A DNA stretch of 64,000 bases from Minisyncoccota bacterium (GTDB taxonomy: Bacteria; Patescibacteriota; Microgenomatia; UBA1400; PJMF01), in contig JAAYYE010000011.1 in assembly GCA_012515515.1 (NCBI GenBank), positions 1,723-65,722 of the forward strand, read 5' to 3'. Of this stretch, positions 1-36,692 are shown piece after piece. Under the pieces are notes generated by a model. It was given only the letters and a program-made list of their open reading frames with translations. It had not been told where the DNA came from and did no database searches. Position numbers and translations under genes: made by a program. Within the stretch, counting starts at the first letter, position 1; each line of letters starts with the position of its first letter.

Positions 1-576
1 GTCATCATCTCCAGAAACTAGGCTCCAAAATTCTTGACCGCATAGCTTGTAGTAGCTCCGATCACCATCGCCCTTCAGTGGGTGGTTATCTTTTCCGTAC
101 ATGCAGCCATTAACAGCAATAATTTCGTTTTTGGTTGCTTTAGAAAGCAACTCTCTAGCCACGATAAAATTATTTATCATTCTATCTACCTGATCTTTGT
201 TTCCCCAAGCTGGTCCGGATTTTATGCCGACAATATAAGTTTTTTTGTCTCGATCAAAAATAAGGTCAACGCTTTTATATATACCTTGCTCAGCTTTGTA
301 CCCACCAAACACTCTTTTGCATACATAGACTGCCAAATCCTCCATGAGATTTCCAAAAATAGTTTCTTCTTGAGAGGATAAAAAGGCATCCAAAATATAT
401 TTAATCATTTCTTCTGCTGTTTGAATATTCTTTGCCTTAAATAAGTAGGGGTTCTTTCGCCTCAACACAGAGTTAAGTTGCAAGGACTCTAATTTACTTA
501 GACGCTTCTCATAAAAAGGAGAAATGACGCTTTGAGATATAAAAATTTGAATTTCTTCTTGATCTAGTTTGTCCAT
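1..576 (-). CDS. Probable Type II restriction endonuclease (PD-(D/E)XK-like), 3' end beyond window edge
   Basis: Minus-strand ORF not in the track because it has no stop in the window. ATG at 576..574 gives MDKLDQEEIQIF..., and 192 codons stay open to position 1. The segment VDLIFDRDKKTYIVGIKSGPAWGN looks like a nuclease core. The start overlaps the last 13 nt of the upstream MTase gene, which is typical R-M operon architecture. Confidence 0.45.
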   Translation of the reverse strand, partial: MDKLDQEEIQIFISQSVISPFYEKRLSKLESLQLNSVLRRKNPYLFKAKNIQTAEEMIKYILDAFLSSQEETIFGNLMEDLAVYVCKRVFGGYKAEQGIYKSVDLIFDRDKKTYIVGIKSGPAWGNKDQVDRMINNFIVARELLSKATKNEIIAVNGCMYGKDNHPLKGDGDRSYYKLCGQEFWSLVSGDDD

Positions 577-1553
577 AGTAGTTCCAGCTGACTATTATTT
601 GTGCTCGGTGTAATAATACCATTTTCTACCTTAATAGTTTTAGTGGTAGTTTTAATTATGGGTTGTTGTGTGTCGTGTGCAAAACGTTGAAGAGCGATGG
701 CATAGTTTTTATCTACAATCTCAATACCTATAGAGTTTCTTCTAAGTAAGGAAGCGGCTACTGATGTTGTTCCACTTCCAAGGAAAGGATCAAGCACCAC
801 ATCACCCTCTTGTGTAAAGAGCTTTATAAACCACTCTGGTAGGCCAATAGGAAAGGTCGCACTGTGATTTTTATTTGCACTTTCAGTGGCCATATGCAGG
901 ACGTTTGAAGGATATACAAGTTCTTTGCCAACCCATTTGGAAACATTTTTCCCAAACCCACTTCCAACTCGAGAGTTGTCTCGTTTTTTATCGGTTTCAC
1001 TGAGGTTTTTGAGTCGAGTTTTAGACCAGTCCCCAATAGGTACCTTCACACTGTCTTGGTACATGTTAAATTTTTTATTTTTATTAAACTGTAATAATCG
1101 TTCCCACGCATCTCTAAATCTATTAGGCCATTTCCCTGGATAACAGTTTTTCTTGTGCCAAATAAATTCTTCGGTCCAAAGCCATCCTTGTTTTCTCATC
1201 TCAAGTATCAACTCCATTACGTAGGTGTGTCGCTCTCCACCAACTACTTTTTCTTTAATATTTAAGATAAATGTTCCAGTGGGTTTGGTTACTCTTAATA
1301 ACTCAGCGGTGATAGGCAAAAACCATTTTACATATTCATTGGGATGAATTCCTCCGTATGTATTTTTTCTTTGGTCAGAGTAGGGTGGCGAGGTTATAGT
1401 GAGGTCAACACTATTGTCAGGAAGCTGTTTTAGGACATTCAAACAGTCTCCTAGATAGAAAGTGGCTTTAGTGTTCTGATAATTTAGAATATCTTTTCTC
1501 ATGTTTATCTGTTTTTTATATTTTAACTTATTTAATTTTACAGTTGTCGACAC
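564..1553 (-). CDS. DNA amino-methyltransferase (N4-cytosine or N6-adenine), beta-class
   Basis: Motif IV SPPY (TITSPPYSD) lies upstream of motif I DPFLGSGTT, the order that defines beta-class N4/N6 MTases. Sits directly upstream of the REase-like ORF. Confidence 0.85.
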   Translation of the reverse strand: MSTTVKLNKLKYKKQINMRKDILNYQNTKATFYLGDCLNVLKQLPDNSVDLTITSPPYSDQRKNTYGGIHPNEYVKWFLPITAELLRVTKPTGTFILNIKEKVVGGERHTYVMELILEMRKQGWLWTEEFIWHKKNCYPGKWPNRFRDAWERLLQFNKNKKFNMYQDSVKVPIGDWSKTRLKNLSETDKKRDNSRVGSGFGKNVSKWVGKELVYPSNVLHMATESANKNHSATFPIGLPEWFIKLFTQEGDVVLDPFLGSGTTSVAASLLRRNSIGIEIVDKNYAIALQRFAHDTQQPIIKTTTKTIKVENGIITPSTNNSQLELLWTN

Positions 1554-1555
1554 AA

Positions 1556-2155
1556 TTATTCTGGTCTGATTAAACCAGCGAATATCCCTCTAATCTCAAG
1601 TTGCTTTGGGATAATTATGTCATATTTCTGATTCCTTGGTTTGAGGATAAATTGACCGTTTACGTTATCGAGGATCTTTAATGTGGCTCCTTTTTCTGTT
1701 ATACCAACAACCACATCTCCAACATCAGCAGTCATTTGGTGTTTAACTAGGATAATATCATTATCTAAAATTCCCATGTCAATCATGCTGTCACCTTTAA
1801 CTTTAAGAGCATAGTAGGAATTATTTTTGTTTAATTTTATATTTGTAGGAATCTGGACAGGCTTTGAGTTTTCAATCGGCTCTATAGGTGTGCCAGCTGC
1901 AATGTATCCCAGCATAGGTACAGTGTGTTTTTGTATAGCAGGAATTATTCCACGATTTTTATAAGGATCTCGTTTGAGATATCCTTTTTTCTCTAATTCT
2001 TGAATAAAATATTGCGCTGTACTAAGGTTTTTAGTTTTAAGAAAATGAGCAAGTTCCTTGAGGGAAGGAGAGTAACCTTTTGTAGCGATGAAGGAGTTTA
2101 TAAAATCCAAGGCTTCTTTTTGTCGGTTTGTAAGAGGCTTGACAATAATGGGCAT
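1556..2155 (-). CDS. lexA: LexA SOS repressor (wHTH + S24 peptidase)
   Basis: N-terminal LexA DNA-binding domain (QKEALDFINSFIATKGYSPSLKELAHFL). C-terminal S24 autopeptidase with the Ser in VKGDSMIDMGI and a downstream Lys. Its stop lies only 2 nt before the MTase ATG. Confidence 0.85.
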   Translation of the reverse strand: MPIIVKPLTNRQKEALDFINSFIATKGYSPSLKELAHFLKTKNLSTAQYFIQELEKKGYLKRDPYKNRGIIPAIQKHTVPMLGYIAAGTPIEPIENSKPVQIPTNIKLNKNNSYYALKVKGDSMIDMGILDNDIILVKHQMTADVGDVVVGITEKGATLKILDNVNGQFILKPRNQKYDIIIPKQLEIRGIFAGLIRPE

Positions 2156-7975: not shown

Positions 7976-8261
7976 CAAGCGCAAGCTAATTCTTGACAAA
8001 TATCCTATAATATATTATACTTAGACAATGTATTCTGACAGGGAAAATAGCAGAGTGAAATAAAAGCTATTTTATCTCTGCTTATTCTCAAGTCAGAATG
8101 CTCTTTAACTTAACAAATCTAATGATTGTCATTCTCCCTGCTTTTTCTGTGGGTAGCATAATGAGCATTTTCTAACTTGGAATGTTTATTATGCTACTCA
8201 TAGAGCTAGCAACTCCACTGTAAGTCCGCACCTTTTGGGCGGCCGTGGCGAAAGGAGAAAA

Positions 8262-8849
8262 ATGATATATAGTAATGTACCGCTATCAGCAAAAATTCGC
8301 CAAATGTCATTTGGCGAGCTCCGAGGGATTTCCCTCGGAGAACTTGGTCGAGGGAGAAAAGAGATCTTTCTCCCAGTACCATCCAACTGTCCCCCAAATT
8401 TCCCCGCGGGGGAAATAGTCCGCGGATTTTCCGTGGGCTATAGTAAAACCGGCCGTCCTCGCATTGTTGCTGAGGACGGTAATCTGTATTTAATACTAGA
8501 CTGCCAGGGGGTTTATACTAGAGGGACCCTGGGCGTGGTCAGCGGGCTGGTTGGTCACGAATACGATGTGATCGCCAACGCCTACGGTGCGTACGGGGAT
8601 GCCGGCAGGATCGGCAGCTGGTGCAGCACCATTTTCAAGGCGAAAGACGGAGACGTCTTTCGCGTGACAAAGTCTGGGGGGATGAGCAAAGTGGGACCAA
8701 GTATAGTGTACTTGGTCTCTGGAAAGAACGTCTACCACTGCGAGCAGCCGCTCGCAGAGGAAATGTTTGAAGCTCTCGGAAGAGAGCTCCCCTTCACACT
8801 GAATAGCAATAGTAGGGTTCTTTCAGAAGAATGGAAGAAGCTTATATAA
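8262..8849 (+). CDS. Hypothetical protein (195 aa), GC-rich coding sequence
   Basis: An AGGAG RBS lies 7 nt upstream of the ATG at 8262. Local GC is markedly higher than the surrounding genome. No domain recognised. A terminator follows. Confidence 0.45.
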   Translation: MIYSNVPLSAKIRQMSFGELRGISLGELGRGRKEIFLPVPSNCPPNFPAGEIVRGFSVGYSKTGRPRIVAEDGNLYLILDCQGVYTRGTLGVVSGLVGHEYDVIANAYGAYGDAGRIGSWCSTIFKAKDGDVFRVTKSGGMSKVGPSIVYLVSGKNVYHCEQPLAEEMFEALGRELPFTLNSNSRVLSEEWKKLI

Positions 8850-12451: not shown

Positions 12452-12609
12452 TCGGCTTTTTGATCTATTTTTTTATTGCTCTAGTGGGGGTGTTTTTGTT
12501 GCTTTTGTAGAGGTATTTTTATGGCTTTCGTAGGGGCTTACATCTTATAATAAATAATTATATTTGCTTTTTCTGACATTTTTTGATATACTTATTAGGT
12601 ATTTAGATA

Positions 12610-12668
12610 GATTGTCTTCTATAAAAACATAGCGTTTTTGGCGAGGATAATCTAGCTCTTTAACAATC
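12610..12668 (+). promoter_or_regulatory. Conserved ~58-bp upstream element, copy A (GATTGTCTTCTATAAAAACATAGCGTTTTTGGCGAGGATAATCTAGCTCTTTAACAATC)
   Basis: Near-identical to the element at 14275-14334 (~90% identity). It contains the inverted repeat AAAAAC-atagc-GTTTTT and lies ~120 nt upstream of the secreted-protein gene at 12787. Confidence 0.5.
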
Positions 12669-12786
12669 TCACATGCTTTTTGCTGTGCGCAAAAGTGAGG
12701 GTAATACTAAATCGCCTTCACCTAGCGCACAGGAATATTGTGGTGCTAGTTAATCCCAAATTGATCAAAGTTCAAAGGAGAACGAA

Positions 12787-13962
12787 ATGAAAAGAGAGGA
12801 TGTTGTAATAGTTATTGTATTGGTGTTTTTGATGTCCTTGTTTATGGGTGTGCTTGACGCTTTTGCGCAAACCCCTGAGCAAGAGGATGTCAGTATCAGC
12901 GGTTTCCAGCTTGCTGGAGACCGTACCACGGAGTTGTTGACAACCCCGCTTTCTATTAAGCCGGGGGATTGTGGTGCGCTCCCTCCTCCCTCGTTTGAGG
13001 GAGTAAAGAGGAACCTCGAGCTTAACGAGGACTCAACAAAAATTCAGGTCTACTATGACTCAAACAAGGGCATGGTATGTGCCCAAGTTTGGGGTACCTG
13101 GCCTGGAACTGTCAACAATGACGGAGTGCAAGAGTTTGACTCCGTCATGCGGGTGTATAAGGGTTACAATCTATTGGAGGTTCAAGACGAACCTTTGATT
13201 AAAAGTAATCCATTTACAGGTGGAATTCCCTTCCACTTGTATTCATTTAAGCTCCCCAAGGGGGGTGGAGAGTATTATTTTTTGTTTGATTTTTACCAGC
13301 AACAATTGCTGGGAAAAGACCGCTTGGGGATGCCTCACCGTGACTGGTCAGGCACCTTTCGTAGCGGACCGCATAGGATATTTCTTCCTATCATCATCAA
13401 GCCGGTGCCACCAACACCGCCACCTCCTCCACCACCACCTCCTCCTCCTCCACCAACCGATTGTCCAAGTTGGACAATTGAAGCGGTTGCGCCGGGATTT
13501 AGCATTCCGGCGTTAACTTACGAGAAAGGGGGTAATCATTACCCCACCATTGGATACTTGTATTTTGGACAGACGATGTCTGTCAAAATCAAGAACAATG
13601 GTGTTGTGTCCAATCTCCCCACGGGTGGGGAGACCACCGTGTACGACGGAGCGGGTAACGTTGTGGCTGAATATGGCCGCAATGGAAACTTCAGTGTCGT
13701 CGGGGGTCAAGGTGTCTTTGGTGAAGATTTCTTCACCTTTGACTCCTCCTTCCTCTGGCAAGGGGGAAGCTGTCGTGCCTCATTCACGATTTGGGACCCC
13801 GAACCGGTCCTGAATCATTTGGAGGCAGAACTTGGCGTGAGTCGTGAAGAGGCTATTAGCCTTTTGAACGACTATTTTAACGAAATCGCCACAACCACTA
13901 CCACCACCACTACAACCCTAACTCAGGATGTCTGGGATTGGGTTGAAACTATCAGCAAGTGA
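12787..13962 (+). CDS. Secreted protein with poly-Pro and poly-Thr linkers
   Basis: Sec-type signal peptide (MKREDVVIVIVLVFLMSLFMGVLDAFAQ), a P14 tract and a T9 tract. GC-rich codons. Confidence 0.55.
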   Translation: MKREDVVIVIVLVFLMSLFMGVLDAFAQTPEQEDVSISGFQLAGDRTTELLTTPLSIKPGDCGALPPPSFEGVKRNLELNEDSTKIQVYYDSNKGMVCAQVWGTWPGTVNNDGVQEFDSVMRVYKGYNLLEVQDEPLIKSNPFTGGIPFHLYSFKLPKGGGEYYFLFDFYQQQLLGKDRLGMPHRDWSGTFRSGPHRIFLPIIIKPVPPTPPPPPPPPPPPPPTDCPSWTIEAVAPGFSIPALTYEKGGNHYPTIGYLYFGQTMSVKIKNNGVVSNLPTGGETTVYDGAGNVVAEYGRNGNFSVVGGQGVFGEDFFTFDSSFLWQGGSCRASFTIWDPEPVLNHLEAELGVSREEAISLLNDYFNEIATTTTTTTTTLTQDVWDWVETISK

Positions 13963-13970
13963 GATGTCAA

Positions 13971-14013
13971 CCAGCTGCCCGCTTTTTAGCGGGCAGCTGG
14001 AAATCTTTTCTTT
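13971..14013 (+). terminator. Rho-independent terminator (CCAGCTGCCCGC-ttttta-GCGGGCAGCTGG + T-rich)
   Basis: Perfect 12-bp stem directly after the stop codon, followed by a T-rich tail. Confidence 0.65.
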
Positions 14014-14274
14014 ATTTAAATATTTTAATTTACTGCACTTTTGTGTAGTTTTTTTAGTAGCTAAAATTTTAGAACAGCGCACCGTTATATAGTTTTTTTG
14101 CTGGCTGAAAAAAATAAAAAGGGAAAGTTGTAAGCGCAATTATCGTTTTTCTAGCAATTCTTATTCCATCAAAAAATTATAAGTAGCGTTTTATTATTAA
14201 TCATTGTCCCATAGAATATCTATATTGTATTGATTTTTTGATTTCTTTTGATACAATAATATCTGTTTTGTGAT

Positions 14275-14334
14275 AGATTCTCTTCTATAAAAACATAGCG
14301 TTTTTGGTGAGGATAGTCTAGCCCTTTAACATTC
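14275..14334 (+). promoter_or_regulatory. Conserved ~58-bp upstream element, copy B
   Basis: Copy of the 12610-12668 element, ~95 nt upstream of the ATG at 14428. Confidence 0.5.
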
Positions 14335-14427
14335 AAACATTTTGTGGACTTAAATTGACCCAACCAAAAGAGGACTCATAATAATCTTTTTTTGGTTGGG
14401 TCAATAGAAAAAAGAAAGAAGGTAGAA

Positions 14428-15408
14428 ATGATACAGACTTTGTGGGAATCACTGTTGCAACTTTTGTCCAATATAATTTTATTTATTGGGCAACTGTTTA
14501 CTGTAGGGGGCAAAATGATTGCCCTCCCAGGTTTTCTCGGCCTGGCAATTGGACTAATACTATTCGCAATTGCTTACAAAAAAACCGAGCATCTTTTAGG
14601 ATCACTCCTCCTACTGGGAGGGGCAGGTCTGACAGTATTTATAATAGTGTCGTACCTACTCTGGCCTTTTTTGTTTAAAGGGTCAGAGAACAGCGTCACC
14701 AGCTGTTACAAGGCGGCTGGAACAAATATAGCAGCCGTGTCAATCTGTGACAGCATTTCTAGTGGTTTTGTTCCCCCATCAACAACACCTGGTGAGCAAA
14801 CACCAGTTGTTGTCGTTCCCCCTACTGATCCTGATGATCAGCAGGTAGTTAGAACGTTCAAGGCAAACGCCTTGGAAATTTTAATCCTGGGGTGGAATCT
14901 AAAACCACCTGGTACGACTAATTTAATCAATCCTGCGGATGTTCCGCAGGGCATTATGTTGTCTTTTGAGTGTGACAATCCAATTGCTACACGTCAAAAC
15001 GAGGTCTGGAAGGTTACCATTTCTGGCATCGTGCCAGGACTAGGGCAAAAATCCCTAGTAATAGAAACAAATGGCTACTTCGCCAGGGACGGCTTTAAAG
15101 CTAAACCTGGCACAAGTGTTGTTGGAACAGGAACTTGGGAGGAGGTTTGTCCAAGTTGCTATACCGATGTGGTGGTTACCCCACCACCTCAACCAACACC
15201 CACTCCAGCTCCCGCTCCAGCAACGACCCAGGTCGCCTTTCCAGAACTCATTTGTGGGTACTGGGGGTGGCTTTTGCAGTCTGGCAATGCGCTGGTGGTT
15301 CCAACCACTGGTGGGCAGCCAGACTTTGCCCACGCGGTGTCCCAAGCTGCAGCCGCAGCGGACATCGCTAAGAGGTGTCCCGGCGAAACCTTGCCGGCAC
15401 CTCCATAA
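14428..15408 (+). CDS. Membrane-anchored Pro/Thr/Ala-rich surface protein
   Basis: AAGG RBS before the ATG at 14428. Three N-terminal TM helices, then a Pro-rich region (PPPQPTPTPAPAPA). Very GC-rich 3' half. Confidence 0.5.
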   Translation: MIQTLWESLLQLLSNIILFIGQLFTVGGKMIALPGFLGLAIGLILFAIAYKKTEHLLGSLLLLGGAGLTVFIIVSYLLWPFLFKGSENSVTSCYKAAGTNIAAVSICDSISSGFVPPSTTPGEQTPVVVVPPTDPDDQQVVRTFKANALEILILGWNLKPPGTTNLINPADVPQGIMLSFECDNPIATRQNEVWKVTISGIVPGLGQKSLVIETNGYFARDGFKAKPGTSVVGTGTWEEVCPSCYTDVVVTPPPQPTPTPAPAPATTQVAFPELICGYWGWLLQSGNALVVPTTGGQPDFAHAVSQAAAAADIAKRCPGETLPAPP

Positions 15409-16384: not shown

Positions 16385-18397
16385 ATGTCAAAGGAAAGAA
16401 GAGGTATTCCTGGAATAACTCATCCGCCAGATGAGACTGACAGACCTCAAACAAATTATTCACGACCCGAGCCTAAAGATCATGGACTTGGTCAATTGTT
16501 ACAAGCTCCAAAAGACATAATAGTCACAGGTTTGCGAGCTATAGCTGGCGCTCTTACTATATCTTTAGCAAGAACTTTAGGCATTAGAGACTCTGTGTCT
16601 CGAGCTGAAAAAGATTTAGCCATCTATGAATCACAACTTAATAAAAGAAAAGGGAATACTGAGAAATTACAGGAAAAAATAGATAAGACAAAAGCTTTAC
16701 TGACTGAATTGAATAAGGGAGTTGAGTTGAGCGAGGCAATTTTAAATATTCAAGAAGACTATAACGAGTTATTGGCAGATGATGAACATCTTTTGTCATT
16801 GTTAGCTAAAACAATTGGCAAGGAAGGTTTAGAAACTATTAAAGGAAGTTTTTTAACTAATCAAAAAACTCAAGTAGGAGTTAAGTCCGTTACTGATGAG
16901 GAAATTAAATTAGCCCAAGAATTTTTTGCTAGAGCTGATAATGATGAAGAAAGAAGTAGCTCACTTAAACAACACATTCAACAGTTAGCCGAAACTAATT
17001 TAATTGTTTTAGGTAAACAGTTGGTTAATTTAGCAAAAATTAAAGAAATTGATGAAATTAATCAAGAGACAAATTTTCCTATTAACTGGGTGTCTTGGGA
17101 CGAAGCCTTAGCAGCTTCGGTAATGGGAGCTACGGGTAGAACTCAAGAATCTCTTCGGGGTGGTTATGGAGTGAATATGAAAGCGGGTGGATTGAATGTT
17201 TCTGCAGGACAGGATATAAGCCAAATTGGTCCTATGGAACAAATTGTAGTTCATGCTGATATACCACAAAATATTGAAGCTGCTAGATCGGTGGCAAATG
17301 GTGAGGTGCCTCTCTTTAGATCAGCAATTATTAAAAGTTTATTTAGAAAAGCTATGGGTGACCTTTCACTATTGCCTGGAAGAATTGATATTAATAACAC
17401 TGGTAATAATAATACTAAGTCATACCCCGCTTTAGATGTTAATCGTCAAATGAACAATATTACTTTAGTTCGTAAGGCTGCAATAGAAATGCAAAAAATT
17501 TTAAAAGGTCTTGAACAAATTGACCTTGGCAAAGATGATGATCAAGCAACACAAAAAAGCAAATTAATTACTGTTGGAAGTAGGGGGGCTTTAGCAATAC
17601 CAAGATATCAAGTTATTGTTGATTTAATGGAGCAAATAAGTGCAACAGATCCAGGAATTATTGCTAATTTAAGTGAGCAATATCGTGTGCTAGAGGAAGT
17701 GGCTGATGAAGACTTAAACGATCAAAATTTGGATGGCGAAGCGGATTTGGCCGAAGAACAACAAGAGGAGCAGGAAGATCAAGCTGATGAAGATGAAGAT
17801 CAAAATATTAATCAAAAGGAGAGAGATTTAATTGAAGCAGTATTTCCTCAGGGAATTGATCAGCGGAATGCAAGGCGGATTATTAACCGTCCAAAAATTT
17901 ATTTTGACAACTTCACTAAACGCTTTGGTCTAATAACAGGTATAAGAACCATGGTGGCTGTCGCAAAAGAAGCTAGAAGGCTGGTTGATACACAAAAGAC
18001 TGATCAAAACGAGGGTGATTTAGTTGAAGCAGTATTTCCTCGGGGCATTGATCAGCGAACTGCAAGGCAAATTATTAAACATCCAAAAATTTATTTTGAC
18101 AACTTCACTAAACGCTTTGGTCTAATAACAGGTATAAGAACCATGGTGGCTGTCGCAAAAGAAGCTAGAAGGCTGGTTGATCAGGAAGACAGAAGGATAT
18201 TAGAAGAAGAAGCTTTAAAACTAGCTGGTTATTTTCACGGGATGAGTATTGAACAAGCCACAAACTTTATAGACAATCTCCAAGCTAATCGTGAGAAATT
18301 ACGTAGGATGTATGGCACAAAAAAGGGCAATAAAACTGCTGATCTAATTAAAGAATTTGCTAAAAAAATTCTTGGGCAAGTGGGTAATTTTAAATAA
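16385..18397 (+). CDS. Large acidic coiled-coil-rich hypothetical protein (670 aa) sharing the N-terminal IPG..P.DE.DRP motif
   Basis: Begins MSKERRGIPGITHPPDETDRPQ. Contains an acidic EEQQEEQEDQADEDEDQ block and a 64-aa internal tandem duplication. Confidence 0.55.
   Translation: MSKERRGIPGITHPPDETDRPQTNYSRPEPKDHGLGQLLQAPKDIIVTGLRAIAGALTISLARTLGIRDSVSRAEKDLAIYESQLNKRKGNTEKLQEKIDKTKALLTELNKGVELSEAILNIQEDYNELLADDEHLLSLLAKTIGKEGLETIKGSFLTNQKTQVGVKSVTDEEIKLAQEFFARADNDEERSSSLKQHIQQLAETNLIVLGKQLVNLAKIKEIDEINQETNFPINWVSWDEALAASVMGATGRTQESLRGGYGVNMKAGGLNVSAGQDISQIGPMEQIVVHADIPQNIEAARSVANGEVPLFRSAIIKSLFRKAMGDLSLLPGRIDINNTGNNNTKSYPALDVNRQMNNITLVRKAAIEMQKILKGLEQIDLGKDDDQATQKSKLITVGSRGALAIPRYQVIVDLMEQISATDPGIIANLSEQYRVLEEVADEDLNDQNLDGEADLAEEQQEEQEDQADEDEDQNINQKERDLIEAVFPQGIDQRNARRIINRPKIYFDNFTKRFGLITGIRTMVAVAKEARRLVDTQKTDQNEGDLVEAVFPRGIDQRTARQIIKHPKIYFDNFTKRFGLITGIRTMVAVAKEARRLVDQEDRRILEEEALKLAGYFHGMSIEQATNFIDNLQANREKLRRMYGTKKGNKTADLIKEFAKKILGQVGNFK
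17825..18181 (+). repeat. Intragenic tandem duplication, 192-bp period (2 copies, distal ~100 bp identical)
   Basis: Both copies encode DL[IV]EAVFP[QR]GIDQR.AR.II..PKIYFDNFTKRFGLITGIRTMVAVAKEARRLVD. Confidence 0.7.
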
Positions 18398-18595
18398 ATT
18401 AAAAGATGTCGTTATTACTAATTAGCTTGAGGATTTTTTGATATTAGCATCAATCTAATCCTCCGCTCTTTAACAAAGCAAACAAAAATAATGGACACTT
18501 AGTGATCCTAACAAGATAAATATAGCATTTGTTTTGTTTGGGTCACTAAGTAGTTGAGTCATTAAACTAAACAATCATAAACCAGGAGGTGGTTA

Positions 18596-20387: not shown

Positions 20388-20415
20388 GGCCCTCCTGGAT
20401 TTATCCAGGAGGGCC
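20388..20415 (+). other. Perfect 12-bp stem-loop (GGCCCTCCTGGA-ttta-TCCAGGAGGGCC)
   Basis: Immediately downstream of the M23/SLT gene. No T tract, so its terminator function is uncertain. Confidence 0.35.
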
Positions 20416-20432
20416 AATACACATTAAATTCA

Positions 20433-29055: not shown

Positions 29056-29132
29056 AAGGGCAAACACTCGTTGATTATGTGTTAATTAATTGGTCTGTTG
29101 CAACACGACGAGTAGTACAAAAGGTATCTATT

Positions 29133-32100
29133 ATGAAAAAACGCACCCGCGCTCTCTTTCTTAAAGTAATTACTTTTTTCCAAATTTTCTCTCTCATTTT
29201 TCAACCCCTAAGCTTATTATCTTTGTTAGTACTTGATCCTGTCGTGGCAAGAGCTCAAGATGAAGTTGTACTTGAGGAGCAGATTTCTGTAGAGCCAATG
29301 GCAGAAGCCAATGTTCAAGCAGAATCAGTAGTGGATGAAGATGCCGAAGAGATCATTGAGCATGAAGACGCAGATGATGATCTAATAGATATTGAAGAAG
29401 ATCTTGAAGAAGAATCTGAAGAAGAGTCTGAAGAAATTCCAGAAGAAATTCTGCCAGTGGCAGATGAAGAAGAGCCTAGCGAGGATGATGCTAGTGCTGA
29501 AGCAGATCTAGAATTATCAATCCCAGAACCAACTTTAACTTTAATTCCTACCCCGATGCCAACAGAGTCAGTAGCTGAAAGTAAGGAAGACAATTCTTTA
29601 ATGCTGGGTGATTTTATGTTTAGTTTAAATTCCGAAGGAGCAGGAGAATACACTATTTCTGGTACTAGTGGTATTTGGACATCAACAAGTAATAATAACA
29701 TCGTTAGTGGTAGAAATACTAACTATATAAAATGGCCAACATCTGGTAATCAAAGTGGTCTTCGCTTTACAGGGGTTAGTAGCTTTAACTTTAACGAAGA
29801 GCAGACTTTTTCTCTAGGTAAGTTGGAGCATTTTAACTATCCTGTAAGTAGTGCAATAACGAAAGCTACTCTTAGTGTGGATATAAATATATCTAATCCT
29901 AACTTAGGTACAAAAACTTTCGAATTTGAAATGCTTATTGATGAAACTGATAATGTTGCTGGGAGATGTCCTAGTTGGCATACGTATGGCCACCCCGCCT
30001 GTGATGACAAAATTACTTTTCCCACATCATACGCTAAACAAACCTTTGACATGGGTGGGAAAAAATATACATTAGAGATAACAGGATTTATTAATTCTTC
30101 TGGAACTAAGGTTAATGAATTTATTACAGAAGAGAGCAAAACAAATGAGGCTACATTAGTTGGTAAGCTAACATCTGTAGATTCCGAGGTAGCTATTTGT
30201 CATGCAACTGGAGATGAATCTAATCCTTATCAAAAAATTACTGGTGTTGATGCAAATGCTACTGTAGGTGATCATGATAGTGACAATGGAGATGCTTGGT
30301 ATCCTGGGATTACTGGAACTTGGGGCGATATTATTCCTAGATTTTTGTATTTTGATGGAAGCGGTAATATTCAAGCATATGAAGGAAAAAATAATGATGA
30401 ATACGGTCTTTCCCTTTTAGCAAATAATTGTGAACTTCCTAGTGGAGAAATTGAAGTAAAAAAGGTTACTGTTCCAGAGGGAAACAACACATCTTTTGGT
30501 GTTACTGGAACTGGTGTAGCTTCTATTTCTAACTCTCCAGTTACATTTATAGATGGAAATACAGGAACTATTTCAGCGACAGAGTCAAAAACATTCAAAG
30601 TATATCCAGGTAAATATTCATTTACTGAAACTCTACCCAGTGGTTGGATACAAACAGGTAATACTTGTAATAATATTGAAATTGAAAATGATGATGAAAA
30701 GTCTTGTACTATTACAAATACTCTTCAGCACGGAACATTAACACTCGTTAAAAAAGTTGTTAACAATAATGGGGGACAATCATTAGCCTCTGCTTGGACA
30801 TTATCTGCTATTGGAAGTGAGGAAAACTTAAGTGGTAAAGGAACTCAAGATCAAAATGAAAATAAAGCCGTACTGGAACTAAAAAATGTTAAAGCAGGAA
30901 CATATACTCTCTCAGAAGCAGGTCCTGCTGGATATGGTGCAAGTGATTGGAGTTGTAAAGATGATGATACAGGAAATGATGTAGCTCACCCAGTTACATT
31001 AGCAGGAGGCCAAAAAGTCACCTGTGCTATTACTAATGATGATATTCAACCTAAGCTTACTGTGACAAAAATAGTTGAAGGTGGAAATAAAAATGTAAGT
31101 GATTTTAAACTCTATGTCGGAAACACTGAAGTAACTAGTGGTCAGCAAACAGGGTTTAATGCAGGAACATATACTGTTAGAGAAGATACCGATTTAGATT
31201 ATAAATCTGTCATAGGAGATGATTGTGCTTCAAATGGCAGTATTACTCTAGCCCCAGGAGATGTTAAAGAGTGTACTATTACTAATACTAGAAAAACTGG
31301 ACAAGTCTCCTTTACTAAAAATGTCACATACGGTGATGCACAACCAAGCAATTGGTCTTTTGCTGTGTATAAAGAAGGTGTGTTGGTGGGTACGTATGAT
31401 CACAATAGTTCAGTGGCATTAGCTACAGGAGTATATACAGTACAAGAAGTGGGTTCCACTTCTTCTTTACCTTACTATTTAGATAGTATAGGAGGGACAG
31501 CATGTAGTGGAACTGTTTTATCTGGAGTTGCACAACTTACAGTAACAGAAAGTGGAGGTACCTGTATATTTGGAAACTCAAAGAAACCTCAGCTTACTGT
31601 TATCAAAGTAGTAGAGCCTACGGATAGTACAGATATCTTTGGTTTTACAATAACTGAAAGTGATGAAGATATAAGTGAATTTACTTTAGGTCATAGCGAA
31701 CCAAAAACTGTAGATGTTATGCCTGGTTCATACACTATTACAGAAACAGGAGCTACAGGATACAGTACTAAAATAGAGTGTACTGATGATCTAATTCCTA
31801 CTTTTGCTACTGCACGCACTATTTCATTAAATGCAACAGAAAATAAATTCTGTAAATTTACTAATACAAAATTAGGTTCTATCTCTGGAACTAAATGGAA
31901 CGACATAAATGGTGATGGAATTAAAGATGAGGGAGAAGAAGCTGTAGAAGGAGTACAGATTTGTATAGATGCAAATGCAAATAGTGTTTGTAATGAGGGT
32001 GAGGTTTCTGTAGCTACAGATGCTTCTGGAAGCTATACTTTTTCTAACCTCTTACCTGGTTCATATACCATTATTGAAACACTTAATTCGGGTTGGGAGC

Positions 32101-35100
32101 AGACATATCCAGCAGGAAGCCATACGGTTGTACTCTCGGCTGGAGAGGTTGAGACTGATCATAATTTTGGCAACTGGAAACTTAAACCAGGAATTAATGT
32201 GGTTAAAAAATCAACCACAGAATTTGTTACGGATGCCGGTCAAGTAGTGCCATATACTTTTACTGTTACTAACATTGGAAATCAGATTTTAACCGGAATT
32301 ACTGTTTTAGATCTAAACTGTGATGTTGCACCTGCTTATCAGTCAGGTGATACAAACGAAGATAGCGAGCTTAATTTAAACGAAACTTGGATTTACACCT
32401 GTAGTCACACTGTCACTCAAGATGAAGTTGATGTTGGTGGCGAGCTTCATAACAAGGTCACTGTCGATTCTAGCGAATCAGAACCTGAAGAAGATGAGAA
32501 AGATATTCCGATCACACAAAGTCCTAAACTATCTATAGAAAAGACTGGAGTATTTGATGATGGAACTGATGGCATTACAAATCCAGGAGATTTAATTACC
32601 TACACCTTTAAGGTAACGAATACGGGTAATCTTACTTTAACGGGAATAACTGTTACAGACCCATTACTAGGAGGTGCTATTACATCTTGTTCAGCTACCG
32701 TTCTAGCAGTAGGTGCAGATATGACCTGTACAGCAACTTATGCAATTACCCAAGCAGATATTGATGCGGGTAAAGTAGATAACACAGCAATTGCAGATTC
32801 AGAAGAATCAGAAGAAGCAAAAGATGATGAAACAGTTGAATTAGAACAAAGTCCTGAATTATCTATAGTTAAAACAGCAAATCCTATTACATACAACAAG
32901 GTTGGAGATAAGATATCTTACAGTTATGTTGTAACCAACACAGGTAATGTTACCTTAAAAGGCCCATTTACTGTTACAGATGACAAAACAGATACGAGCT
33001 GTCCAGAACCAGAAAGTTTAGCACCAAACGGATCTATTACTTGTGGTGCAACTTATACTATCACTCAGGCGGATCTTGAGAGCCAATCGGTTACCAATAT
33101 TGCATTTGCTTCCAATGATAAAGTAACTTCTGATAAAGATAGTGCAACAGTAACTTCTGTAGCAGGAAAAATAATAATTGAAAAACAAACTCTTCCTGAT
33201 GGATCTGCAGAATCATTTGAATTTAATCCAACTTGGAGTGAAAGTAACTTTAATCTAACAGATGGAGAGAAAAACGAAAGCGGATGGTTAGCTGCAGGCA
33301 CATATTCAGTTTCAGAAATTGTCCCAAGTGGTTGGCAATTAACTGATATTGAGTGTGATAGTGAAAACACTACATCTACTGTAGGTTACAATACAAACTC
33401 TGCTAATATAACTCTTGGAAATAGTGATATTGTAACATGTGTATTCACTAACTCTAAAAAAGGTACTCTTACAGTAATTAAGGATGATAATATCGATAGT
33501 GGTCAAGAATTTACATTCTACGCATTACAAGGAGGAGCACAGAGAGAAACCCGATTCACCCTGTCTGATGATGGAAGTAATAATGCTGAAAAGAATAGCA
33601 AAACATTTGTAGGATTAGTATCTATTCCATACAAAGTAAGAGAAGTTGTTCCAACAGGATGGAGTGCATCTTTGGTAAGCTGTACATCTAACAATCCAAT
33701 GCCTAACCCAGATAACAGCTTGGGAACCGGAGAAATGAGTATTTCATTAAGACCAGGTGAAAATATTATCTGTACCTTCATAAATACTCGAGACACAGGT
33801 TCTATAAAAGTAAATAAATATACAGATATAAATGGAGATGGTGATTGGAATGATAGAAACGAAAAAGATAATTCTAATGCAAATAAATTAGGATTTAGAT
33901 GGAGTATAGATGGTGGAGACGAGAATAAAATGGGAGATAAAGTATCTGGTATACATACAGGAACATATTCAATAACGGAATCAATGCCCGATGGCTATCA
34001 CTTCGTTTCTTGGTACTATACTAAGGAAAATGGCAAATCCTGTACTAATCCAAATGGAACAACTTTTCCTTCTTCACTTGATGTTACAAAGGGAAACACA
34101 ACTGAAATCACAATGTGTAATGTAAGAGATACGGGTACGGTTACCATTATTAAAAATTCTGTCAATGAAAGTGGACAAGACTTTTACTTTAAGACAGATT
34201 TCCCTTCTGGAGGATTTTTCTTAGAAGATGATGGGCGTGATAATCATGGAACTCCCAATCAAAGAACATTTACCCTGCCAACGGGTGAGTATTATGTCGA
34301 TGAAAGAGAATATACTGGTTGGCAATTAACTGATCTGGATTGTGAGGGAGATGCTGAGTCTGTAGTTGATTTGGCTACGGGACGAGTAGATATCAACTTA
34401 CAGGCCAATGAAGAGATTACCTGTACCTTTACCAATACCCAATTAGCAAAAATTTGGGGATATAAATATAATGATAAAAATGGCAACGGCTCTTGGAATT
34501 TGGGTGAATGGGGTTTGGGTAACTGGAGAATCTTTTTAGATGAGAATGGTAATGGGATATATAACAAGCCAGAAGCCAGTACCCTCACCAGCAATTTCCC
34601 ACTGTTACTCACTTTGGGATATTACCAATTCGACAATCTATTACCAGGAGATTATACAGTCTGTGAAACACAAAAAGCTGGCTGGAGCAATACAAGTCCG
34701 CTTTGTAGAACCATCACTTTAAAGCCTGGTGAAATTGCTAATGTGAATTTCTTCAATATTCAGTATGGGCAGTTAAGCGTGCACAAGTATTATGACCAGA
34801 ATGGTGATGGACTTTTAGACGAGGGCGAGCAAGGATTAGAAGGCTGGGAGATGAATGTCTACAAAGGTAATAATTGTTGGGGCGAGCCAATGGCTAGTGA
34901 TCTTACTAATGATCATGGTTATGCAGTCTTTGAAAACTTAGTGCCTGGACAATACTCTGTTAAGGAAACTCTAGAGGATGGTTGGGAAACAACCAGCGAT
35001 GTTTGTACTACTATAAAAGTGGACCCAGCAAGCCATAAAACTGTTGATATTGGCAATCGATTGATCGATAGTCAATTAATGATCGAAAAAACCAACGATG

Positions 35101-36692
35101 CTTGGCCAAACGATCAAGAAATTGGTGACGAGGTGACTTATACCATTAAACTTATGGCAACTGATGGCCCGGTTTATGATGTGTCACTCTTTGATTTACC
35201 ACCGCATGCTTTTAGCTATGTGGCAGGTAGTTATACGGCTGACTCTTCGATTGCTGGTGATTTAAGTCTCTCTGAACCCAATTATGCTTCGCCAGGAGAA
35301 TGGCAGCTAGGTGATTTAGCCAAAGACGAAATTGTCACCGTGAGCTATAAAGCGATTATTGGTGATGAGGCTGACGCGGGTATTTACCCAGATGCAGCTT
35401 GGGCTACTGGCACTAGCGCTGAAGCTCAATATTTTGGGAAAAAAGCAGATTTATTAGCTTTGTCTGATCCAGACTTTAAGGCTGATAATGGTGAAGTGGC
35501 TTTCCTAGGTGAGCAGGGTCATTATGGCGAAGAGCATTTTGTTGGCACTCGGGTGGCAGTGGTCACTGATGAGACGCCAAGCGCTAAATACAAGGTTGAG
35601 AAGATTAAAGAAAAAGAGGGCGCAGTGCTCGGTGCGATTTTACCAGCAACTGGTGCCAACTTCTGGCTCAGCCTCTTAGCCATAATAAGTATTTTAACTG
35701 GTACGGGCTTACTCTTAGTGCCCAATCGTAAGCGTCGCCAAGGAAAGGTGCTAATGATGCTTTTAATGCTAGGTTTAGGCTTATTAATGGCCAAACCAGT
35801 TCAAGCGCTAACCTCAGTTAGACTGGCTCAGCCATATAATAGCAGTGCTGAGCTTGATCAAGATGCGATCACTAATCAAGACGAATTCCGCATTGATTTT
35901 GTGATCCTCAATACTGATGGTGCAAGTCTTACTGCTCAATGTCAGCAACAAGAAGATGGTGGAGCTTGGACTAATATTGACACTGTTTATACGGCGAAAG
36001 CTGGCGGCAATTCTGGTTATTGTGAGGCTAAAGATTTAGCTAACAGCAGCCAATATGCTTTCCGAGTCTTAACTAGCGACGGAGAAGAAAGTCAAAGCGT
36101 CAAGGTTGGTCTAGAAACCGATCGTCCTAAAAAACCAGTCAGTTACGAGAAGCATGAAATCAGTTCTTGTAAATATGAAATTAAATTTAAAACGGCTGAT
36201 GATGGACGAACCAGCAAGGTTGAGGTCTATCGTAGCGATGACAATGTTTCATTTACTGCTAAAGCCAGTAGTCGCATTAAAACGATTACGATTGGCTCAG
36301 ATGAAAAACACAGTTTTGAAACAACTCGACCTGATTGCGACAAAGATTATTATTATGCTATTCGCGCTTTTGACCAGTATGGCAACGCCTCAGACTTAGT
36401 TGGTGATCGGGAAGTGAAGACGGTCATTGTTGAAGGCACTGAAGCAGAAGAAGCAGGCGCTCTTGCAGTCACTGAAACCGTCGTTTTAGACGGAGATGTA
36501 GGTGATGCTGGCGTCCTCAGCGAAGGTTTACTTGGCGAAGAAGTGGCAGAAGACGAAAAAGGGACAATTTTAGGCATAGATACAGAAAGTCTAGTGTCCT
36601 TTTTAACCAAAGTTGCTTTACCAATTTTAGTCTTTGTTACCATCGCGATTTTAGTTTATCGCTTGGTCATTGCGAAGCGTAATGAAAAATAA
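29133..36692 (+). CDS. Giant (~2,500 aa) surface adhesin: signal peptide, acidic region, multiple DUF11 and SdrD-B/CnaB-type repeats, internal LPATG sorting signal, then FN3-like module with C-terminal TM anchor (possibly two genes, see findings)
   Basis: MKKRTRALFLKV... signal peptide. Acidic DE-rich block. DUF11 repeats (VTNTGN.TLTGITVTD). CnaB/SdrD-B-like repeats (GTKWNDINGDGIKDEGE...). LPATG at 35640-35654 followed by a hydrophobic stretch and NRKRR. The frame then continues into a second signal-peptide-like segment and FN3-like domains. Confidence 0.7.
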   Translation: MKKRTRALFLKVITFFQIFSLIFQPLSLLSLLVLDPVVARAQDEVVLEEQISVEPMAEANVQAESVVDEDAEEIIEHEDADDDLIDIEEDLEEESEEESEEIPEEILPVADEEEPSEDDASAEADLELSIPEPTLTLIPTPMPTESVAESKEDNSLMLGDFMFSLNSEGAGEYTISGTSGIWTSTSNNNIVSGRNTNYIKWPTSGNQSGLRFTGVSSFNFNEEQTFSLGKLEHFNYPVSSAITKATLSVDINISNPNLGTKTFEFEMLIDETDNVAGRCPSWHTYGHPACDDKITFPTSYAKQTFDMGGKKYTLEITGFINSSGTKVNEFITEESKTNEATLVGKLTSVDSEVAICHATGDESNPYQKITGVDANATVGDHDSDNGDAWYPGITGTWGDIIPRFLYFDGSGNIQAYEGKNNDEYGLSLLANNCELPSGEIEVKKVTVPEGNNTSFGVTGTGVASISNSPVTFIDGNTGTISATESKTFKVYPGKYSFTETLPSGWIQTGNTCNNIEIENDDEKSCTITNTLQHGTLTLVKKVVNNNGGQSLASAWTLSAIGSEENLSGKGTQDQNENKAVLELKNVKAGTYTLSEAGPAGYGASDWSCKDDDTGNDVAHPVTLAGGQKVTCAITNDDIQPKLTVTKIVEGGNKNVSDFKLYVGNTEVTSGQQTGFNAGTYTVREDTDLDYKSVIGDDCASNGSITLAPGDVKECTITNTRKTGQVSFTKNVTYGDAQPSNWSFAVYKEGVLVGTYDHNSSVALATGVYTVQEVGSTSSLPYYLDSIGGTACSGTVLSGVAQLTVTESGGTCIFGNSKKPQLTVIKVVEPTDSTDIFGFTITESDEDISEFTLGHSEPKTVDVMPGSYTITETGATGYSTKIECTDDLIPTFATARTISLNATENKFCKFTNTKLGSISGTKWNDINGDGIKDEGEEAVEGVQICIDANANSVCNEGEVSVATDASGSYTFSNLLPGSYTIIETLNSGWEQTYPAGSHTVVLSAGEVETDHNFGNWKLKPGINVVKKSTTEFVTDAGQVVPYTFTVTNIGNQILTGITVLDLNCDVAPAYQSGDTNEDSELNLNETWIYTCSHTVTQDEVDVGGELHNKVTVDSSESEPEEDEKDIPITQSPKLSIEKTGVFDDGTDGITNPGDLITYTFKVTNTGNLTLTGITVTDPLLGGAITSCSATVLAVGADMTCTATYAITQADIDAGKVDNTAIADSEESEEAKDDETVELEQSPELSIVKTANPITYNKVGDKISYSYVVTNTGNVTLKGPFTVTDDKTDTSCPEPESLAPNGSITCGATYTITQADLESQSVTNIAFASNDKVTSDKDSATVTSVAGKIIIEKQTLPDGSAESFEFNPTWSESNFNLTDGEKNESGWLAAGTYSVSEIVPSGWQLTDIECDSENTTSTVGYNTNSANITLGNSDIVTCVFTNSKKGTLTVIKDDNIDSGQEFTFYALQGGAQRETRFTLSDDGSNNAEKNSKTFVGLVSIPYKVREVVPTGWSASLVSCTSNNPMPNPDNSLGTGEMSISLRPGENIICTFINTRDTGSIKVNKYTDINGDGDWNDRNEKDNSNANKLGFRWSIDGGDENKMGDKVSGIHTGTYSITESMPDGYHFVSWYYTKENGKSCTNPNGTTFPSSLDVTKGNTTEITMCNVRDTGTVTIIKNSVNESGQDFYFKTDFPSGGFFLEDDGRDNHGTPNQRTFTLPTGEYYVDEREYTGWQLTDLDCEGDAESVVDLATGRVDINLQANEEITCTFTNTQLAKIWGYKYNDKNGNGSWNLGEWGLGNWRIFLDENGNGIYNKPEASTLTSNFPLLLTLGYYQFDNLLPGDYTVCETQKAGWSNTSPLCRTITLKPGEIANVNFFNIQYGQLSVHKYYDQNGDGLLDEGEQGLEGWEMNVYKGNNCWGEPMASDLTNDHGYAVFENLVPGQYSVKETLEDGWETTSDVCTTIKVDPASHKTVDIGNRLIDSQLMIEKTNDAWPNDQEIGDEVTYTIKLMATDGPVYDVSLFDLPPHAFSYVAGSYTADSSIAGDLSLSEPNYASPGEWQLGDLAKDEIVTVSYKAIIGDEADAGIYPDAAWATGTSAEAQYFGKKADLLALSDPDFKADNGEVAFLGEQGHYGEEHFVGTRVAVVTDETPSAKYKVEKIKEKEGAVLGAILPATGANFWLSLLAIISILTGTGLLLVPNRKRRQGKVLMMLLMLGLGLLMAKPVQALTSVRLAQPYNSSAELDQDAITNQDEFRIDFVILNTDGASLTAQCQQQEDGGAWTNIDTVYTAKAGGNSGYCEAKDLANSSQYAFRVLTSDGEESQSVKVGLETDRPKKPVSYEKHEISSCKYEIKFKTADDGRTSKVEVYRSDDNVSFTAKASSRIKTITIGSDEKHSFETTRPDCDKDYYYAIRAFDQYGNASDLVGDREVKTVIVEGTEAEEAGALAVTETVVLDGDVGDAGVLSEGLLGEEVAEDEKGTILGIDTESLVSFLTKVALPILVFVTIAILVYRLVIAKRNEK
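35640..35654 (+). other. Internal LPATG sortase recognition motif (LPxTG + hydrophobic + RKRR tail) not followed by a stop codon
   Basis: The sequence ILPATGANFWLSLLAIISILTGTGLLLVPNRKRRQGK then continues in frame. An AAGGAAAGG RBS lies 5 nt before the in-frame ATG at 35754. Confidence 0.6.

Follow-up and report, generated by a model that had tools for sequence, protein, structure and literature searches.

The 64,000-nucleotide (nt) stretch of DNA examined here (the window; contig JAAYYE010000011.1 of a Minisyncoccota bacterium) carries on its plus strand two neighboring open reading frames (ORFs), gene A (12787-13962) and gene B (14428-15408), and upstream of each lies one copy of a conserved element of about 58 bp. 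The initial annotation of this DNA had singled out the pair as a genuine repeat located 95-120 nt upstream of the start codons of two unrelated genes for secreted or membrane proteins, and these observations hold. By its coordinates, the spacing is 119 nt for copy A (ATG at 12787) and 94 nt for copy B (ATG at 14428); proteins A and B show no relationship in BLASTP (E = 3.4 between them), and inspection of the translations reveals a signal-peptide-like N-terminus in protein A and hydrophobic membrane segments in protein B. Neither protein has a Pfam match. Gene A is followed by a strong G+C-rich terminator, called by a terminator scan at 13971-14000, so gene B needs a promoter of its own. The operon of gene B (B operon) also includes a gene for an M23/SLT peptidoglycan hydrolase (start 18596), after which a further G+C-rich terminator stem is found at about 20390-20417.

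The two plus-strand copies (A, 12606-12665; B, 14272-14331) are separated by 1666 bp, both contain an inverted repeat, and they are identical at 56 of 60 positions, the 4 differences leaving untouched a 27-nt core, TCTTCTATAAAAACATAGCGTTTTTGG. An ungapped repeat finder gives the pair a length of 76 nt, with 87% identity (12599-12674 and 14265-14340), and pairwise alignment detects a weaker likeness for about 25 nt further upstream, across a -35 and extended -10 promoter. Shuffled versions of the window gave 0 matches to the repeated pair, which together with this extension rules out a chance repeat. A covariance model built from all known copies and run over the window with filters off found 2 copies only, scoring 94 bits (A) and 90 bits (B), the next plus-strand match reaching 12 bits.

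Further copies, a search for which had been proposed with the initial annotation, are confined to relatives of this locus. A pattern scan covering a single genome for each GTDB species returned 2 matches, both on one contig of the metagenome-assembled genome Candidatus Paceibacterota bacterium AS22ysBPME_311 and both upstream of orthologues of genes A and B; an earlier pattern scan of genomes had returned no match, and a scan of metagenomes returned only the same organism. An identical protein A is encoded on a 692-kb Joint Genome Institute metagenome contig and in several other assemblies, with identical intergenic DNA in all. Viral contigs held no genuine copy, and the 4 matches among them to a loose pattern were dismissed as chance, their flanks being unrelated. 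Homologues of protein A (57-75% identity) and protein B (39-75%) led to syntenic loci in at least 6 further lineages (given numbers with the prefix L where they must be told apart), and the element is present upstream of both genes in every sufficiently close related locus. Across 5 species, the leader blocks 12543-12748 and 14227-14405 are 0.8-0.98 identical, compared with 0.45-0.8 for the coding sequences and 0-0.25 for the spacers between terminator and promoter; hence, the leader blocks are the most strongly constrained DNA of the locus. Gene conversion between the two copies need not be invoked, since the distance between paralogues (5-9 of 64) equals that between orthologues (1-11) and each promoter can be assigned clearly to type A or type B.

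An alignment of 11 distinct copies of the element resolves the anatomy of the module, which consists of a -35 box, an extended -10 box, about 15 nt of spacer and a 47-nt hairpin, followed directly by the invariant GCYCTTTAACAWTC. Beyond GCYCTTTAACAWTC, the A and B leaders diverge from one another, each being kept among species. The aligned promoters have the form TTGATT/TTGCTT, 16-17 nt, TGnTAYAMT, with a perfect TATAAT in L012_A and L014_B. The leader A promoter (12564-12592), from which we infer a start of transcription, comprises TTGCTT (12564-12569), a 17-nt spacer that includes TGn, and TATACT (12587-12592); upstream of it is an A/T-rich conserved block, where conservation begins abruptly at about 12543. 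The candidate leader B promoter (14230-14257; TTGATT, 16 nt, TGnTACAAT), picked up by a promoter scan that includes the TG and kept in the aligned copies, lies past the gene A terminator. The tRNA-Arg gene of the window has an extended -10 promoter of a similar kind in front of it, TTGAAC-17-TGaGATAAT, which makes this promoter type plausible here. The same segment, 14230-14257, and its aligned copies also contain three TTGAT units about 10 bp apart (TTGATTT-TTTGATTTCTTTTGATA). The triple is reminiscent of direct-repeat response-regulator sites and may be just the -35 and extended -10 boxes in A+T-rich DNA; FNR/CRP boxes were considered for these repeats and rejected, the repeats being direct rather than inverted.

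The segment that follows the hairpin directly, GCUCUUUAACAA, is at the level of sequence identical to the core of boxA in the rRNA (rrn) operons of Escherichia coli. The published boxA consensus is GYTCTTTAANA (PMC5725501), which NusB/S10 of this lineage may or may not recognize. The putative boxA of leader A (12655-12666, GCTCTTTAACAA) matches it perfectly and, with the T at 12667, has 13 nt, GCTCTTTAACAAT, in common with the E. coli rrn leader. Taking UGCUCUUUAACAA as the E. coli rrn boxA, leader A and a third leader, C (described below), are both perfect to the consensus and identical over 12-13 nt. The 10-mer GCTCTTTAAC is invariant in all five A copies. In leader B, the corresponding variant (14321-14332) reads GCCCTTTAACAT in the window and GCTCTTTAACAT in L012, L014, L018 and L020/L025, and the consensus is perfect in four of the seven lineages. 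At the most distant locus, L022, the hairpin of the B leader is shorter and unrelated in sequence, yet it is followed by GTTCTTTAACA, a perfect consensus boxA. In E. coli genomes, TGCTCTTTAACAATTTATCAGACAATCTGTGTGGGCACTCG occurs at a median of 7 places each and, in the locus that we retrieved, stands 104 nt upstream of the annotated 16S gene, after a hairpin and the P2 promoter.

How far such matches exceed expectation depends on the length of the motif. The exact 12-mer GCTCTTTAACAA is found twice in the window against 0.03 expected, and GCTCTTTAAC three times against 0.20. The pattern GCYCTTTAAC has 4 sites, all on the plus strand, all directly 3' of a hairpin and all in the 5' intergenic leaders of plus-strand genes; they fall in three of the four longest intergenic regions (450, 335 and 465 nt) and in one of 198 nt, with intergenic DNA making up 9.6% of the window. 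The shorter core CTCTTTAACA is about as common as chance predicts when one mismatch is allowed in the 10-mer (10 observed, 8.4 expected) and was therefore set aside as stand-alone evidence, being meaningful only with its context and the longer 12-mer. The boxA copies are in sense orientation, are unpaired in most predicted folds and lie downstream of conserved sigma-70-like promoters, leader C being without a clear one.

Leader C had been foreshadowed by the remark in the initial annotation that a related CTCTTTAACA core precedes the M23/SLT gene. The core is indeed present at 18466-18475, and both the boxA 12-mer and the adjacent hairpin support the relationship. In this leader (18429-18476), GAGGAUU..AAUCCUC encloses UUGAU-AUUAGC-AUCAA (18429-18463), followed by GCTCTTTAACAA at 18465-18476. 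It is situated inside the B operon, within a region (18398-18595) that is conserved as a leader in 4 lineages (that of the window, L023, L025 and the distant L022). Four of the 12 pairs in its hairpin show compensatory double changes among 4 sequences, a level reached by 1 of 500 shuffles, as AGGA/UCCU becomes GGGA/UCCC and UUGAU/AUCAA becomes UUGAA/UUCAA and UUGGU/GCCAA. Further along is a long helix, hairpin 2 (18495-18554; z = -5.1), which looks homologous to hairpin 2 of leader B, and the whole of leader C contains 8 pairs with compensatory changes.

A fourth leader, D (7993-8111), combines a candidate promoter, TTGACA-17-TATACT (7993-8021), with a first hairpin of 70 nt (8030-8099) and a boxA-like GCTCTTTAACTT (8100-8111). 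The region 7993-8264, upstream of a 204-amino-acid (aa) ORF (8235-8849), has an overall fold of z = -9.7, and the leader is kept in a second strain (L001) with boxA intact. The 204-aa protein has no Pfam match, and neither a signal peptide nor a membrane segment is evident on inspection of its sequence.

In rrn operons, the order of elements is boxB hairpin, boxA, boxC, of which boxA is necessary and sufficient for Nus-factor recruitment; boxC, UCUGUGUGGG, comes 18-19 nt past boxA in Enterobacteriaceae and forms the 5' strand of a long leader-trailer helix with an RNase III site, and a second signal is located in the 16S-23S spacer (PMC10250234; PMC8632103). All four leaders described here have a hairpin directly 5' of boxA and, after a further 10-35 nt on its 3' side, a GU-rich stretch with which a helix of 20-27 bp begins, hairpin 1 of leaders C and D sharing the build of A and B with different hairpin sequences. 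In leader A, the boxC-like region (12682-12732; 0.7-0.98 identical across 5 species) begins 15 nt past the boxA 12-mer with GU-rich GCUGUGCGC (12682-12690), which opens a long composite helix with GCGCACAG (12725-12732). In leader B, UUUGUGGAC (14341-14349) precedes hairpin 2 (14354-14405), a 21-bp near-perfect helix that is 0.92-0.98 identical across species and whose inner stem carries a compensatory change in the distant L022; leaders B and C have UGUGGAC and UGGAC, respectively, before their long helices. In leader D, the boxC-like UCUGUGGGUA (8146-8155) opens a 27-bp hairpin 2 (8147-8203).

Two further features of these helices were recorded. Within 12682-12750 of leader A, GCGCACAG (12725-12732) pairs with the upstream CUGUGCGC in the single-sequence minimum free energy (MFE) fold and with the downstream UGUGGUGC in the RNAalifold consensus, and these two mutually exclusive conserved helices could possibly form a conformational switch. 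Inside hairpin 2 of leader B, at 14355-14382, is a near-consensus sigma-70-like site, TTGACC-16-CATAAT (TATAAT in other species), which could be a second promoter of gene B or merely part of the helix.

The main body of each copy of the element is hairpin 1, which is boxB-like in position (leader A, 12608-12654; leader B, 14274-14320) and in leader A consists of 12 bp, a 2x2 internal loop and 7 bp closed by the loop AUAGC. The inverted repeat AAAAAC-N5-GTTTTT pointed out in the initial annotation is present in both copies and turns out to be the tip of this longer, 19-bp imperfect hairpin. The pentaloop has the form ANNGC, the predicted stability is -17 to -19 kcal/mol, and the MFE fold of the plus strand has z = -3.5 in leader A and -2.1 in leader B, with no significant value for the minus strand. 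Among the 19 stem pairs in 11 copies, 13 are invariant, 5 vary on one side and 1 position is usually mismatched. All 10 of the changed stem cells in the alignment are still paired (G-C to G-U, U-A to U-G, A-U to G-U and U-G to C-G), and all but one of the changes would produce an A-C mismatch on the other strand, which lowers the symmetry of the DNA palindrome.

The direction of these substitutions, together with the compensatory changes in leader C, argues for an RNA structure rather than a symmetric DNA operator. The covariance model agrees, with minus-strand scores about 55-70 bits lower (for leader A, 30 compared with 94 bits). This model had been suggested as a means to separate a DNA palindrome from an RNA structure, and it favors RNA through the difference between strands, covariation within A and B alone being not significant. 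The initial proposal of a cis-regulatory module (operator, promoter or 5' untranslated region [UTR] RNA element) thus stands in that the element is cis-acting, common to unrelated genes, and a combination of a promoter with a 5' UTR RNA element; its operator option fits poorly. The informative part of the element is the single-stranded motif after the palindrome, not the palindrome.

No Rfam family matched the leaders at gathering thresholds, and searches at E <= 10 and E <= 1 gave only chance matches resembling microRNAs or small RNAs, none on the element. Several other candidate identities were tried and dropped: ANTAR dual hairpins (the element has a single hairpin), a sigma-dependent pause element (TAGATT) with a Q-like factor and CsrA sites (both for lack of fit), and extracytoplasmic function (ECF) or sigma-54 promoters starting at TTTAAC, where there is no conserved second element.

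With a probability of roughly 60%, these leaders act as Nus-factor (NusB/S10) antitermination leaders on protein-coding operons, and the element itself probably makes up the 5' part of two mRNA leaders that are paralogous and have the build of the rRNA antitermination signal. The features seen directly are the sequence identity of boxA, the order of the parts, their conservation, and the RNA-type substitutions in the A/B and C hairpins. It looks as if a known mechanism had been borrowed by protein-coding genes, rather than a new kind of switch. This bears on the dedicated surface-protein regulon that had been envisaged at first: a motif equal in sequence to rrn boxA suggests the general machinery of Nus-factor antitermination instead of a regulator dedicated to surface proteins, and the gene set is not strictly one of surface proteins, given the gene behind leader D. 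Co-regulation of the leader-bearing genes is plausible.

The rrn signal of bacterial rRNA operon leaders and spacers is read by NusB-S10, NusG, NusA, SuhB and S4, which act in the rrn transcription antitermination complex (rrnTAC), and by analogy with the E. coli system we infer Nus-factor binding, the antitermination outcome and processing here. Transcription would start from the sigma-70-type promoter (-35 TTGATT, extended -10 TGnTAYAAT) about 8-10 nt before the 47-nt hairpin, the presumed counterpart of rrn boxB, and the transcript would then expose single-stranded GCUCUUUAACAA as boxA; some 10-35 nt on, the GU-rich stretch would open the helix of about 20-27 bp, corresponding to boxC and the leader-trailer helix. 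NusB-S10 bound to the nascent boxA, together with NusG and NusA, would render RNA polymerase resistant to termination, probably of the Rho-dependent kind, while it passes the long structured untranslated leader (about 180-250 nt) and then the operon. With its 5' region tethered, the transcript may form the long helix more readily, and this helix might then be cleaved by an RNase III-like activity to give the mature 5' end of the mRNA.

Several observations weigh against this interpretation. In the window lineage, L015 and L024, the leader B boxA has C at consensus position 3 (GCCCTTTAACA, T3C), and that of leader D matches at 10 of 11 positions, ending in T where the consensus has A. In DNA as A+T-rich as this, the loose consensus GYTCTTTAANA is by itself no rarity, with 0.88 exact matches expected in the window and 2 found (24 and 22, respectively, when one mismatch is allowed). 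Leader C lacks a convincing promoter, and the match to boxC UCUGUGUGGG is good only in leader D (UCUGUGGGUA) and partial in leader A (6 of 10). The covariation shuffle test on the A/B hairpin alone (11 copies) was not significant, for which too little divergence is the reason, and the near-invariant sequence of this hairpin may be read specifically by some factor, which a plain rrn model does not require. We found neither rRNA genes nor nusB, nusG, nusA, rho or rnc in the window or in any fetched locus. Finally, RNAalifold pairs CUCUUU of boxA (12656-12661) with the Shine-Dalgarno (SD) region of gene A (12774-12780) in most of the 5 species, so that the motif could act as an anti-SD sequence; the same pairing might possibly link Nus-factor binding to translation initiation.

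That pairing is at the center of an alternative that we regard as unlikely, though worth keeping in view, in which a structured 5' leader presents single-stranded CUCUUUAAC as a cis-acting anti-SD sequence, or as a site for another RNA-binding factor, that controls translation or mRNA decay, the identity with boxA being coincidental. The single-sequence MFE fold also pairs the motif, here with AAAGAG just past the start codon, and the hairpin near the predicted 5' end is like known stabilizing 5' stem-loops; the abundance of loose boxA matches in A+T-rich DNA is likewise compatible with coincidence. However, the SD pairing is just 6 bp long, includes G-U pairs and is broken in several cells of the alignment, it is not predicted for leaders B, C and D, and it leaves unexplained both the 12-13-nt identity with rrn boxA and the boxB-boxA-boxC-like order in four otherwise different leaders. 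An attenuator, in which hairpin plus CUCUUU would stop transcription in a riboswitch-like manner unless a factor intervenes, seems very improbable. A stable hairpin is indeed followed by a pyrimidine-rich stretch, and leader A has the mutually exclusive helices CUGUGCGC/GCGCACAG and GCGCACAG/UGUGGUGC, but the terminator scan that calls the gene A terminator does not call the element, which has only 4 U in the 8 nt after an A-U-rich stem, whereas the true terminators of the locus are G+C-rich; nor is there an Rfam match on the element even at E <= 10.

Other explanations operate at the level of DNA. A dimeric repressor could co-regulate genes A and B by binding the palindrome TAGATT..AAAAAC-N5-GTTTTT..AATCTA past the promoter, an arrangement that we consider improbable. 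Its arms are almost invariant across species, with 13 of 19 pairs never varying where a mere hairpin would allow compensatory changes; relative to the predicted promoter, the site spans about +10 to +57; and a Crp/Fnr-type regulator gene (cNMP_binding plus HTH_Crp_2; L025 6985-7668 and L018 2644-3327, both minus strand) adjoins the gene A locus just upstream in one related lineage. Against this, that gene is absent there in the window lineage, where no regulator gene is conserved beside the locus, and the DNA arms match at 16 of 21 positions only. Substitutions are not strand-blind, as a palindromic operator would require: every observed change worsens the DNA palindrome and keeps a plus-strand G-U pair. 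Moreover, the hairpins of leaders C and D are unrelated in sequence although the architecture is the same, and that of C shows compensatory changes. The remaining proposal, also raised at the outset, is a mobile repeat such as a miniature inverted-repeat transposable element (MITE) or repetitive extragenic palindrome (REP), or else a recent functionless local duplication. The near identity of the two copies, their spacing of 1666 bp and the inverted repeat inside each would fit such an origin, but its probability is close to negligible: instead of many dispersed copies there are 2 in 64 kb and exactly 2 in the GTDB representatives, on one syntenic contig, with none in viral contigs; the same two sites beside orthologues are occupied in every locus, across at least 6 lineages whose proteins are 39-75% identical; and both copies are more conserved than the coding sequence.

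Returning to the proposed Nus-type leaders, their likeness to the rrn signal comprises the 12-13-nt boxA, the succession of promoter, hairpin, boxA, GU-rich stretch and long helix, a similar spacing from boxA to boxC in leader A (15 compared with 18-19 nt), and the position of leader C inside an operon, which parallels the 16S-23S spacer signal. They differ in preceding protein-coding genes, in a long helix that is closed by a short loop instead of enclosing rRNA, and in a hairpin 1 much longer than E. coli boxB. JUMPstart/ops elements read by RfaH, and the leader hairpins of LoaP, direct antitermination of surface-structure operons by NusG paralogues, ops (GGCGGTAG) acting as non-template DNA. 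Like them, our leaders would combine processive antitermination with a short conserved element that recurs ahead of non-homologous surface-component operons, whereas the sequence here differs from ops and no NusG paralogue was seen near the locus. The E. coli ompA leader has a 5'-terminal stem-loop that stabilizes an abundant envelope-protein mRNA; it resembles our leaders in that a secreted-protein gene is preceded by a long leader with a stable hairpin close to its 5' end, but an ompA-type model leaves the invariant single-stranded boxA and the shared architecture unexplained. Stringer and colleagues reportedly described, in 2020, boxA upstream of CRISPR arrays, with Nus-dependent antitermination of long untranslated transcripts; there, boxA is said to guard long untranslated RNA from Rho, whereas the untranslated stretch here amounts to 180-250 nt of leader, after which translated genes follow.

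Outside rRNA, boxA has been found in the 5' UTRs of suhB, rpsJ, prsA and other genes of gamma-proteobacteria (Baniulyte et al. 2017, PMC5725501), which shows that Nus factors have targets beyond rRNA, and that source describes Nus factors as broadly conserved in bacteria. Our leaders share with these a consensus boxA ahead of non-rRNA genes and differ in its distance of about 95-150 nt from the start codon, in the boxB- and boxC-like flanks, in the several transcription units involved and in their host, a bacterium of the candidate phyla radiation (CPR). Sites of the suhB type lie less than 50 nt from the start codon, and in suhB itself translation is repressed and Rho-dependent termination follows (PMC5725501); given the greater distance here, repression of this kind is less likely. 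In phage lambda nut sites, boxA comes before boxB, in reversed order (PMC8632103). There, too, boxA and a hairpin on nascent RNA, read by the N protein with Nus factors, nucleate a termination-resistant complex; in contrast, no N-like gene is evident here, and the locus is chromosomal and syntenic across species.

We found no paper on CPR leader RNAs or on Nus factors in Patescibacteria, and gene regulation in the CPR is almost unexplored, its members being uncultured and having few recognizable regulators. The chief value of the leaders is hence as an entry point to gene regulation in these bacteria. What sets them apart is the CPR lineage, the full boxB-boxA-boxC-helix layout, a boxA far from the start codon, and at least 4 such transcription units in 64 kb, three of them envelope-related. 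If the proposed function is correct, boxA/Nus antitermination acts in Paceibacterota on envelope protein-coding operons with a complete rrn-like leader, the short list of non-rRNA Nus targets grows past the proteobacteria, and a hairpin followed by GYUCUUUAACA near a promoter provides a handle for co-expressed, probably highly expressed CPR genes. Should the identity with boxA be a coincidence, what remains is a lineage-specific conserved leader hairpin; the four leaders are well-conserved structured RNAs that are not in Rfam.

A more far-reaching idea, which we offer as doubtful, is that the leaders are miniature rRNA operon leaders, co-opted in a genome-reduced CPR bacterium to couple its envelope machinery (secreted protein A, the membrane-protein B operon and the M23/SLT peptidoglycan hydrolase) to the transcription apparatus of ribosome synthesis, with the invariant A/B hairpin docking a lineage-specific N-like or other RNA-binding co-factor that sets the A and B units apart. 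The layout of such a miniature leader, equally tentative, would be a promoter with an A/T-rich upstream block, boxB, boxA, boxC, and a helix of leader-trailer type closed by a loop. The B operon and the M23/SLT hydrolase may themselves be part of a secretion- or conjugation-like envelope apparatus, as hinted by a DUF87/TrwB-type ATPase gene (L022 5182-7353, minus strand) that lies near the B-C gene cluster of the most distant relative.

Two sets of internal repeats were noted at the locus. The 670-aa gene of the B operon includes a 189-nt tandem duplication (17801-18181; 92% identity, 192-nt spacing), and an adjoining 277-aa gene has internal repeats of 60-84 nt that encode DSDRPRSRK motifs. 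Near the gene A locus of L012 are umuD/umuC-like genes, and at the start of the window a LexA-like repressor gene adjoins an N6/N4 DNA methylase gene (564-2155, minus strand). At 29079-37308, a 2537-aa ORF is directly followed by a sortase gene (36670-37308), and its product is probably a sortase-anchored giant surface protein. On the minus strand, 45753-45848 matches the AdoCbl-II (cobalamin) riboswitch at 37.9 bits, compared with an Rfam gathering threshold of 36.5 bits, upstream of a minus-strand ORF (44923-45648) with no Pfam match.

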